From positions 1-20,329 of the forward strand of contig JBLGBN010000016.1 of the NCBI GenBank assembly GCA_047617745.1: a stretch of DNA of 20,329 bases, given 5' to 3'. The translations under genes and the position numbers were made by a program. Positions 10,613 through 14,087 of the stretch are shown here, in pieces. Below the pieces are notes generated by a model. That model saw nothing but the letters and a program-made list of their open reading frames with translations, was not told the DNA's origin and searched no databases. The first letter of the stretch is position 1, and every line of letters starts with the position of its first letter. This DNA is from Candidatus Nanohaloarchaea archaeon. GTDB lineage: Archaea; Nanohalarchaeota; Nanosalinia; Nanosalinales; Nanosalinaceae.

Positions 10613-11443
10613 ATGGCACTAGTTCCTATAAAACCAGAACCAGGTAGCAACGCAGATTTCTACGGCAGCGGCAGCGATGGCGATCTTACCTGGAGCAGCA
10701 ACCAGGACAAAAGCGGGTTGTTCCAACCCCAGAACCTTACTATAACCAGTGGAACATCTATCAACGTCCCTAACAGCGGTAAAGCTCTAGTTATATTCGC
10801 TCAAGAAAAAATAAGTATAGAAAGCAATGCCTCAATAAATGCCGCCGGAGTCGGGGCCAGTGGAGGAGCAGGAGGTTTCGGAGGCAACACCTATGACGGT
10901 TCATCTGGAGACCCTGGTGGCGACGGAGAATTAAACGGGCCTGGAGGAAGCAACGGGGGAAGCGGATCGATATCAGCCCCTACCGGGCTGGAAATTGTAA
11001 AACTGCTTGGATTATCCATAGAAATAGCTCAAAACAGCCTCCCTGCAGGCGCCGGAGGAGGTGGAGGAAGCGGCGGAGTAAACACCGATCAATACTCTGC
11101 AGGTCATGGCGACGGTGGTGACGGTGGTGACGGAGGCGGCCTAGTACTTTTGGTCGCTCCCACAGTAGAGGTAGCTGGGACAGCCCAGATCGATGTATCA
11201 GGTGCTGATGGACAAGATGGACAGGATGGTTCCAGTGGCGCGAATCTCTCTCCAGGTGGAGATGGGGGTGGCGGTGGAGCAGGTGGTGTTTTCGGGGCCG
11301 TAGGAAGCAGCATAACTATAAGCGGCTCTATAAATACTTCAGGTGGTGCTGGTGGAGAGGGCGGAACGGGCTATAACGGCGGTGATGATGGATTCTCAGG
11401 AGGAAGTGGAGCTGAAGGGATTAAATCGATAAATACAATATAA
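10613..11443 (+). CDS. Glycine-rich (polyglycine-II/beta-strand) adhesin-like protein resembling viral tail tip proteins
   Basis: N-terminal FYGSGSDGDLT...NLTITSG; hydrophobic strands (LVIFAQEKISI, LVLLVAPTVEV, VFGAVGSSITISGSI) alternate with GGxGGxGG and GAGGGGGSGG runs; no signal peptide or TM helix. Confidence 0.75.
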   Translation: MALVPIKPEPGSNADFYGSGSDGDLTWSSNQDKSGLFQPQNLTITSGTSINVPNSGKALVIFAQEKISIESNASINAAGVGASGGAGGFGGNTYDGSSGDPGGDGELNGPGGSNGGSGSISAPTGLEIVKLLGLSIEIAQNSLPAGAGGGGGSGGVNTDQYSAGHGDGGDGGDGGGLVLLVAPTVEVAGTAQIDVSGADGQDGQDGSSGANLSPGGDGGGGGAGGVFGAVGSSITISGSINTSGGAGGEGGTGYNGGDDGFSGGSGAEGIKSINTI

Positions 11444-12457: not shown

Positions 12458-12964
12458 TTAAGTAACTCTCTCCCATTCTATTTCTATCTCATAACTTGGC
12501 TCACCAAGTTCTACATCTTCTATCTCTGCACGCCCTATACCTCTTCCAGGGAGCCTATCGCGCACTTTTATGCTGGATTCGCCGATCCTGTTGCCCTGGA
12601 CTTCGTAGGTAACTTCTTCTATATCTCCTACTTCTATCGACATTTCGGCCTGACCTTCCTTAGTTTCCGTCTCTTGGATAAGGTATTCGTTCTGCGGATC
12701 TATTCCATCCACCCAGCTATCATAGAGGTCCAGAATTTCGTCTCTTCCTTCCGCCATTGGTTCTCCGTTAAGAGTTGCTCTGGCATTCTTTGGAAGATCC
12801 TCAAGATAACCTCTGATCTCTCCTACATTTGGAGCGAAGTACTGATCAGCCACATCATCAAAGTTGTCATCGTGTCCTACAACAGAGTCTACTGTGTCCG
12901 GACCGAAATCATATTTTTCCTCACTCGAACCAAGTATTTTTGATACTAAATTCATTTTCATCAC
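12458..12964 (-). CDS. Hypothetical acidic protein (start could be 12964, 12961 or 12955)
   Basis: Long acidic ORF convergent on tRNA-Val; TATA-like stretch near 12993-13000. Confidence 0.7.
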   Translation of the reverse strand: MMKMNLVSKILGSSEEKYDFGPDTVDSVVGHDDNFDDVADQYFAPNVGEIRGYLEDLPKNARATLNGEPMAEGRDEILDLYDSWVDGIDPQNEYLIQETETKEGQAEMSIEVGDIEEVTYEVQGNRIGESSIKVRDRLPGRGIGRAEIEDVELGEPSYEIEIEWERVT

Positions 12965-13051: not shown

Positions 13052-13816
13052 ATGGCCAAGAAATACCGTCTGGGAGGCGGCCTTCAGATAGTTGAAAACG
13101 GATACTTTATCGGACCGGTGAGGGATCCTGATGCGCCGAGGAAGCCCTGCTGTCTTGATATATCCGCTGGTTTGATGGAGCCGGATGAAGGAATGAAAGC
13201 CACCCAGGTCCGGGAAGGAGCTGAAGAGGTAGTCAGGGTTAGAGATGGCGAAGTATTTCTCCCGAATCTAGTGCAAAATGCAGAAGTTGTAGAGCAGGTA
13301 ACTTCAACAATCGCGGAAGCGATTGAAGATCCAGAGAGTCCTTTTGAACACAGATTCAACCTCAATTTCTACAGCTCCGAGGCAAGAACACCTACAAACA
13401 CTCCAGAAGTCTGGATACAGGGCCATTCACTCCACGACTGGGAGACAGGCGTCGCTATCGAAGATGATAACTCGCCCTCCTATGAAATGGTTAATTATAT
13501 AGTTGAAAATCCTCCTGAAGATGTTAAACCGGTTGACGCTGAAGTGGTAGAGGTTGACGGAGAAGTAAACTGGCTGGATAGATTTGTCTACAGATTCCAT
13601 CCTACCACCGGAGAAGCAGAACTGTACAAATCCGGAGAAAAAGCCTTCGAAGGAAGTTTCCCAGAAATGATTGAATTTCTGGAAGAAGAATTTGGAGAGT
13701 CAGTAGGCTCAACTGTGAAGGTTAAAGCTGCTCTGAAAGGTTTACCTCCCGAAGAGCAAAAGCTCTACGAAGATGACCTTCACGACGACATCAGACAGTT
13801 TTTCAATCTGAAGTAG
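13052..13816 (+). CDS. Divergent Nudix-family hydrolase
   Basis: G-LMEPD-E-GMKATQV-RE-GA-EE-V fits the Nudix box spacing GX5EX7REXXEE; preceded by VRDPDAPRKP. Confidence 0.75.
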   Translation: MAKKYRLGGGLQIVENGYFIGPVRDPDAPRKPCCLDISAGLMEPDEGMKATQVREGAEEVVRVRDGEVFLPNLVQNAEVVEQVTSTIAEAIEDPESPFEHRFNLNFYSSEARTPTNTPEVWIQGHSLHDWETGVAIEDDNSPSYEMVNYIVENPPEDVKPVDAEVVEVDGEVNWLDRFVYRFHPTTGEAELYKSGEKAFEGSFPEMIEFLEEEFGESVGSTVKVKAALKGLPPEEQKLYEDDLHDDIRQFFNLK

Positions 13817-13860
13817 TTCGGGAACCCAATAAAAAACTTCACTTCTTCAATAAACATACA

Positions 13861-14014
13861 GGGAAGGTAGCTCAGTCGGATAGAGCGCTGCGCTCATACA
13901 ACAGGTATGAGCAATGAGAGGTCGATCAGACCTCGATGATTAAATAAAATATCTTACTCGTCAGAGTTTGTTTGGGTTACGCAGAGGTCCCGGGTTCGAT
14001 CCCCGGCCTTCCCA
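13861..14014 (+). tRNA. tRNA(CAU), probably elongator Met, with an 80-nt intron at 37/38 (13899-13978)
   Basis: Acceptor GGGAAGG/CCTTCCC + A, D arm GCTC/GAGC, anticodon stem CTGCG/CGCAG with loop CTCATA^A, T arm CCGGG-TTCGATC-CCCGG. Canonical BHB: central helix CUCA/UGGG, bulges UA^C and UU^A, flanked by AACAGG/UUUGUU. Confidence 0.95.
13899..13978 (+). ncRNA. tRNA intron containing a C'/D' K-turn methylation-guide module
   Basis: Guide GTATGAGC (13905-13912) is complementary to GCTCATAC (13892-13899); D'-like ATGA 13914-13917; stem GAGGTC/GACCTC; C'-like ATGATTA 13936-13942. Confidence 0.75.
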
Positions 14015-14087
14015 TCTGACCTCTCAAAAAGGTCAGCATGGTCGAGAAACCATTCAGTTCGAATGGTTTAGTTCCCATTTGCGGCCT

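Follow-up and report, generated by a model that had tools for sequence, protein, structure and literature searches.

A tRNA-Met intron of nanohaloarchaea as a probable half-size box C/D guide to its own wobble base

What might an 80-nt intron be doing in the elongator tRNA-Met gene of a nanohaloarchaeon with a genome of only 834 kb (88.6% complete)? The window, that is, the whole stretch of DNA analyzed (20,329 nt, on contig C16), contains such a gene, and its intron carries a copy of the complement of the anticodon loop followed by motifs that resemble the boxes of archaeal C/D sRNAs. Judging from sequence comparison and predicted folds, we consider it probable that this intron is a half-size box C/D guide that 2'-O-methylates C34 of its own transcript, in cis and before splicing.

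Identity of the tRNA gene

An Rfam search placed a tRNA at positions 13861-14014 (forward strand, as are the features described below unless stated). ARAGORN missed the gene at default settings, and with the intron option it reported an 80-nt intron at the canonical 37/38 site (13899-13978). The sequence, Rfam, and ARAGORN together define a 5' exon for positions 1-37 of elongator tRNA-Met(CAU) (13861-13898), with C34 at 13895, and a 3' exon for positions 38-73 (13979-14014), in which the CCA end is not encoded. The intron itself matches no Rfam family. When introns are allowed, ARAGORN mislabels many of the tRNA-Met genes at loci L176-L218 and L254 as Ser, Thr, or Ala, a possible reason for the intron motif having been overlooked.

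Using ARAGORN, we also identified a separate initiator tRNA-Met (contig C19) and a tRNA-Ile(UAU) (contig C33) in the same genome. TiaS was found in none of five genomes (the host and four single-contig relatives) by a search that was positive in four archaeal controls. The CAU gene is therefore an elongator tRNA-Met, and an Ile2 identity is ruled out by the same three observations. Comparison of the gene with contigs from four public runs revealed no differences, which excludes an assembly error. In the host assembly, which is 88.6% complete, we found neither a tRNA-Trp nor an rRNA.

Just 3' of the gene (14015-14080) lies a pair of short hairpins together with a second, degenerate T-arm and 3' end of the tRNA. 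The same run of hairpins and degenerate T-arm copy occurs at loci L016 and L017, and it is possibly what is left of an element with its integration site at the tRNA. No Pfam match was obtained for a glycine-rich ORF of 276 aa or for two ORFs that flank tRNA genes (10613-11443, 13052-13816, and 12458-12964).

A putative guide cassette in the intron

The putative target strand, GCTCATAC (13892-13899), comprises tRNA positions 31-37 plus the first intron base. It is a perfect 8-bp complement of the antisense guide GTATGAGC (13905-13912), with a 5-nt loop between them, and the two strands are paired in both the minimum free energy and the centroid structures. A single unpaired spacer base, A13913, separates the guide from a box D'-like ATGA (13914-13917), recognized by comparison with homologs; the final GA of this box is present in every guide-bearing homolog, and the first two bases are variable. 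The fifth base upstream of the ATGA, G13909, pairs with C13895, which is C34. The box is followed by the predicted canonical stem-loop of a kink-turn (13918-13934), supported by the fold and by homologs, with a 6-bp stem (13918-13923/13929-13934) and a 5-nt loop. Sequence and homologs further define a 3-nt bulge, GAT (13935-13937), which overlaps a box C'-like ATGATTA (13936-13942), the two together spanning 13935-13942. This C'-like box matches RUGAUGA at six of seven positions and includes GATT (13938-13941), with G.A, A.G, and U.U as the predicted kink-turn pairs. A preliminary description of the sequence had placed the guide, spacer, ATGA, stem, bulge, and GATT at these positions, and all were verified.

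Such an arrangement is rarely expected by chance. A guide followed by one base and HTGA arose in 0.04% of 200,000 shuffles of the host intron. The fold of 13892-13945 has a z score of -6.3, and none of 200 shuffles was as good. The complete cassette (ATGA or CTGA, stem, and RATGATT) occurs once in the host genome and is absent from its remaining introns. Seven further matches to guide plus N plus HTGA were found in the host assembly (88.6% complete) in a search for a separate trans guide, and none of them is followed by the cassette.

The cassette lacks much of what defines an archaeal C/D sRNA. A terminal box C (RUGAUGA, at most one mismatch) 5' of the first guide was found in none of 84 unselected introns and in 1 of 137 in a wider set, which bears out the earlier remark that no clear terminal box C is present. 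A CTGA that could serve as terminal box D follows box C' in 9/137 introns, and fewer than 16 nt are left after C' in 64/137. There is no room for a second guide because 62 of the 137 introns are 50 nt or shorter (the shortest is 34 nt). The CAGA at 13962-13965, previously suggested as a D-like box, straddles a small local hairpin and is not conserved; thus, it is not a D box.

By sequence and covariation, the D'/C' pair can form a kink-turn, with tandem G.A pairs, a 3-nt bulge, and a stem. The antisense element falls short of the canonical 10-12 nt, having a 7-nt conserved core that is extended to 8 bp in the host. Across 165 introns the antisense helix is 7-10 bp in 153 and at most 10 bp in 156, matching the 10-nt duplex limit reported for the enzyme (PMC7229835). 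The cassette is thus not a member of the four-box archaeal C/D sRNAs, but would work like one half of such an sRNA. Taken together, the antisense element, D'-like box, stem, and C'-like box likely form a half-size box C/D guide.

Register and distribution across archaea

A BLAST search with the tRNA-Met gene returned matches in 46/61 genomes. To read the guide register we used sets of genes collected by exon pattern or BLAST and not by the guide. Among 43 nanohaloarchaeal tRNA-Met genes parsed, the cassette is present in 42 and absent from the 16-nt intron of the remaining gene, so that the fifth base upstream of box D' falls on C34 in 42/43 introns (41 by script, and L029 by eye). The same register was found in 29/30 introns from the Micrarchaeota phylum (30 loci fetched out of 42 exon-pattern matches) and in 12/12 from the Aenigmatarchaeota phylum (11/11 by script, and L206 by eye), in which one additional tRNA-Met gene is intronless. 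No parsed intron has a different spacing between guide and D'.

A pattern scan of all species genomes, which selects for the guide, listed at least 112 archaeal tRNA-Met genes plus 8 bacterial chance matches. The archaeal matches listed are from Micrarchaeota, Aenigmatarchaeota, Woesearchaeota, Nanohaloarchaea, N. equitans, and Hadarchaeota. In the phylum of Nanoarchaeum and Woesearchaeota the distribution is patchy, with the cassette in only 7/221 genomes. All seven encode fibrillarin, but so do 170/221 overall; therefore, co-occurrence of cassette and fibrillarin is uninformative in this phylum. One record titled Methanosarcinales (L136, genome G195) sits in the sample from this phylum, and Methanosarcinales-type titles among the scan matches are probably wrong. 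Beyond DPANN, 16 of 18 Met-type CAU genes of the Hadarchaeota phylum have the cassette, one has it with a single mismatch, and one lacks it; none of 12 Ile2-type CAU genes does. These counts are from 30 CAU genes fetched out of 41 matches, and the assignment to Met or Ile2 type is inferred from stem sequence. In 293 genomes of three non-DPANN phyla, a sample that does not directly include Halobacteria, Thermococci, Thermoplasmata, or Asgard, there were 35 pattern matches, none of them inside a tRNA.

The preliminary description had pointed to a C/D-like tRNA-Met intron in Nanoarchaeum, correctly (PMC3491384; locus L113 has the same layout), and had suggested a DPANN trait. The cassette does occur in many DPANN groups, but its range is wider and reaches Hadarchaeota. 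It has also been lost independently at L050, L188, and L339, and is thus dispensable in places. Genome G050 (72% complete) has neither the guide nor a fibrillarin match, and its Nop5 lies at contig ends.

Covariation of guide and exon

If the guide pairs with its own exon, changes in one should be followed in the other. Position 31 and guide base -2 form A-U in 101, G-C in 63, and G.U in one of 165 distinct introns, with no mismatches, and L206 has a U-A pair. These introns are kin, and the tree of the 76-nt exons is too weakly supported for a covariation test; on this tree, position 31 accounts for approximately seven changes and one well-supported independent pair. Both the A-U and the G-C states occur within Aenigmatarchaeota, within Woesearchaeota, and within Nanoarchaeia. 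The first two intron bases also covary with the bases 5' of the guide (80/136 versus 59.9 in shuffles, and 45/119 versus 27.7). Where the intron begins with a base other than A, 35/60 introns have U at guide base -9 and only 14/60 have a complementary base; a U here would be compatible with pairing to A38 in the mature tRNA as well.

Turning to the kink-turn, the first three pairs of the canonical stem are kept in 80, 80, and 75 of the 80 introns counted (shuffle means, 77, 35, and 32); these counts are inflated by taking the best-pairing C' candidate in each intron. The stem pairs next to the bulge are of many types among the same 80 introns. The fourth pair of the non-canonical stem is loose, being Watson-Crick in only 74/135 homologs. 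The U-A pair of the host had been described as compensatory; general compensation at this position is ruled out by that count, and the pair is lineage-specific.

Cassettes in other tRNAs

Retargeting of the cassette provides a further line of evidence. We identified 15 tRNA-Trp genes, from 15 genomes of the host family, with the same ATGA-stem-RATGATT cassette and a guide rewritten for CCA, again aimed at C34 (loci L274, L276, L279, L280, L283, L292, L293, L298-L304, and L307). They were found with a pattern that contains the guide, so the count gives no frequency. Position 31 covaries here also, with C31-G in 12 and A31-U in 3. In L306 the spacer is longer.

Other tRNA introns present a mixed picture. 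The tRNA-Lys introns of the host genome and of genome G002 have no self-guide. In the tRNA-Lys(UUU) intron at L206 (genome G399), a 7-nt self-guide and a 3-nt spacer precede a D'-like box, which is followed by a stem and a C'-like box; in this one example the +5 rule points at C32 and not at position 34. The tRNA-Lys(UUU) intron of G002 (L256) contains a CTGA box and a consensus box C, with no complement to its own anticodon loop, and is possibly a guide for another RNA. Met and Trp introns at L020, L279, and L280 have a common hairpin inserted into the stem of the kink-turn, suggesting that tRNA introns exchange sequence.

Competition between guide hairpin and splicing motif

The exon bases that pair with the guide also take part in the splice-competent fold. 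In a constrained fold, the 3' side of the bulge-helix-bulge motif spans 13967-13979: 13967-13972 pairs with 13900-13905, 13973-13976 pairs with tRNA positions 32-35, and 13977-13979 forms a bulge. This fold and the guide hairpin draw on the same exon bases and are mutually exclusive. The motif (a 4-bp helix and two 3-nt bulges, at 37/38) has all four central pairs here and three or four of them in 155/165 introns. The guide hairpin is predicted to be the more stable of the two in 151/163 homologs, with a median difference of -4.0 kcal/mol (-30.0 versus -25.0 in the host), and the median predicted probability that C34 is paired with the guide is 0.99.

We propose the following sequence of events. 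In the nascent pre-tRNA the guide would pair back on positions 31-37, forming a hairpin of 7-10 bp that folding predicts to be more stable than the bulge-helix-bulge. L7Ae would bind the single kink-turn, and Nop5-fibrillarin would dock and methylate C34, the base at a distance of five steps from box D'. The pre-tRNA would then refold into the bulge-helix-bulge and be spliced, so that methylation would precede splicing. The modification may serve to restrict the anticodon to AUG and keep it from reading AUA, a codon read in these cells by the separate tRNA-Ile(UAU). Cm34 is known on archaeal tRNA-Met and tRNA-Trp (PMC4033218, PMC7668247, and PMC2584109), and it has been described as preventing misreading of AUA (PMC7668247).

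The same chemistry could instead occur in trans, if the excised and probably circular intron were stable and acted as a half-size guide toward C34 of other pre-tRNAs or of mature tRNA-Met. The N. equitans intron RNA is stable and abundant (coverage 31,500; PMC3491384), reviews report that the Haloferax tRNA-Trp intron guide acts in trans (e.g., PMC2584109), and the frequent U at guide base -9 would suit the mature tRNA, matching A38. However, the free duplex would be weak (-8 to -17 kcal/mol in three examples), and the target in any pre-tRNA is already covered by its own guide (the median probability of 0.99 given above). In addition, pairing extends beyond the shuffle level into intron bases of the gene itself. 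Action in trans thus appears unlikely to us.

Protein machinery

Methylation would require the C/D proteins, and the preliminary description had proposed that the genome be checked for them. All three (fibrillarin, Nop5, and L7Ae) are encoded, as is the splicing endonuclease. Fibrillarin was identified in 59/61 genomes searched. Its K, D, K, and H residues, which we take to be the catalytic tetrad, are invariant in 24 aligned sequences. The fibrillarin gene adjoins the Nop5 gene in the host genome. Fibrillarin or Nop5 genes lie within approximately 2 kb of tRNA-Met at L268 and L269 (genomes G002 and G003) and on contig C24 of G063, and not in the host genome.

Perhaps the most puzzling component is Nop5 of the host family (L034:1399-2154, contig C17 of genome G000; loci L342-L369 of family f1). 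Approximately 100 residues of its N-terminal domain are missing, and just the last helix of this domain remains. The protein has 251 aa in the host and 247-252 aa in aligned sequences, and the open frame has 247-284 aa in 34 of the 35 family genomes with a match. Approximately 50 residues precede the conserved FPE motif, versus 105-166 in other nanohaloarchaeal families, N. equitans, and Hadarchaeota. The alignment starts at residue 120 of the Sulfolobus protein, and a structure model has one N-terminal helix. Other nanohaloarchaeal families keep the domain; Nop5 of Ca. Micrarchaeum A_DKE is likewise short. No separate gene for the missing part was found. The N-terminal domain normally recruits fibrillarin, and its truncation is the main argument against the methylating reading in the host family. 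The last helix may be enough, or else the enzyme may operate in another way in this family. Two canonical-looking four-box C/D sRNA candidates with similar guides were identified in G000 (C6, ~13855-13930, minus strand, and C15, ~13757-13831, plus strand); together with the adjoining fibrillarin and Nop5 genes, they argue that the RNP is alive.

Given this truncation, L7Ae, with or without Nop5, might simply hold the pre-tRNA in a fold that cannot be spliced, acting as a splicing gate or a stabilizer of the intron with no methylation at all. This would be most plausible in the host family, where Nop5 lacks most of its N-terminal domain, and it would account for a hairpin that excludes the splice motif and prevails over it in 151/163 homologs. 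Yet a gate needs no fixed five-base register, and position 34 is the constant target in both Met and Trp, the two tRNAs known to carry Cm34. The cassette is absent from Ile2-type genes, fibrillarin is intact and adjoins Nop5, and families with full-length Nop5 have the same cassette. We therefore regard a gate without methylation as quite unlikely.

A half-size guide might also be imprecise, so that several riboses around positions 32-35 are methylated and not C34 alone. The register is exact to the base in all parsed homologs, and the finding that prompts the idea, the lack of specificity of engineered single-site complexes (PMC1635284), was followed by reports that half-size guides with L7Ae are site-specific on 8-11 bp duplexes (PMC9670817 and PMC7229835); we consider loose targeting very unlikely. 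That the guide is a neutral relic, left over from an origin of the intron by inverted duplication of the anticodon loop, is scarcely credible despite the independent losses at L050, L188, and L339, and is largely refuted by covariation and by retargeting in tRNA-Trp: the guide tracks exon changes, and the guide, spacing, and boxes are held in at least five archaeal groups although the intron otherwise has no common sequence and ranges from 34 to 292 nt.

The guide with a single kink-turn aimed at C34, as initially proposed for this intron, is thus supported by conservation, the fixed register, covariation at position 31, and retargeting in tRNA-Trp, as well as by its absence from Ile2-type CAU tRNAs and the presence of genes for fibrillarin, Nop5, and L7Ae.

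Implications

If true, this reading provides a conserved natural half-size guide open to reconstitution with a pre-tRNA and three proteins, and suggests a function for an intron retained in very small genomes. The orphan intron RNA of N. equitans would gain a target. In archaea, half-size guides have so far been shown working in test tubes. As the guide hairpin competes with the splice motif, the order in which modification and splicing occur can be tested directly, and the truncated Nop5 raises the question of what a minimal C/D enzyme is.

More broadly, and only tentatively, DPANN archaea and Hadarchaeota might share a natural family of half-size cis guides, built on a portable cassette that has been retargeted (C34 of tRNA-Met, C34 of tRNA-Trp, and, in one aenigmatarchaeon, C32 of tRNA-Lys). 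Each would block its own splice site until methylation has occurred, a modify-then-splice checkpoint, and the host family would run it on a stripped-down RNP whose Nop5 has nearly no fibrillarin-binding domain. We see this larger scheme as possible rather than probable.

Comparison with known systems

The literature searched, in which few subscription journals are represented, yielded no account of a tRNA-Met intron guide that is self-targeting or half-size. The closest precedent is the 66-nt intron of the N. equitans elongator tRNA-Met, reported as a stable RNA and proposed as a possible C/D sRNA (Randau 2012, PMC3491384), with its target listed as "no prediction". This intron is a homolog, as locus L113 has the same layout of guide, spacer, D', stem, and C'. 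Box C was drawn there three bases further 5', a register that needs a G absent in 50/135 homologs. Relative to that account, as far as it is available, the self-targeting, the half-size design, and the wide spread are additions made here.

The intron of euryarchaeal pre-tRNA-Trp (Haloferax volcanii, and sR50 of Pyrococcus) contains an RNA with four boxes and two guides (for C34 and U39), which reportedly acts in trans (PMC7994747, PMC4090602, PMC11408192, and PMC2584109). That guide and the tRNA-Met cassette have in common an intronic location, C34 of their own tRNA as target, the +5 rule, and the same three proteins. They differ in that the tRNA-Met cassette has one kink-turn and one guide of 7-8 nt and is placed for action in cis. 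Unlike the four-box guide of euryarchaeal tRNA-Trp, the tRNA-Trp introns of the host family have the half-size cassette. For Cm34 of tRNA-Met itself, the guides described are sR-tMet of Haloferax and sR49 of Pyrococcus, both encoded away from the tRNA (PMC4033218 and PMC2584109). They target the same base and recognize it in the intron-containing precursor, whereas here the guide is intronic instead. An intronic tRNA-Met guide would contradict PMC2584109, according to which the guide for Met "is always exonic".

According to published descriptions, natural archaeal methylation guides always have two box pairs. Halfmer or monopartite C/D guides have been engineered (Hardin and Batey 2006, PMC1635284; Yang 2020, PMC7229835; Wang 2022, PMC9670817), and these are synthetic. 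In the 2006 construct the target was tethered to the guide by a loop, and the complex was active but not site-specific (PMC1635284), which the 2020 study blames on the 15-bp duplex (PMC7229835). The latter treats halfmer function in cells as an open question and names as natural candidates only poorly conserved human C/D-like snoRNAs. A synthetic 5' guide with one kink-turn directed specific and efficient methylation with L7Ae on duplexes of 8-11 bp (PMC9670817). The engineered halfmers and the intron cassette are alike in design, each having a 5' guide followed by one kink-turn stem-loop.
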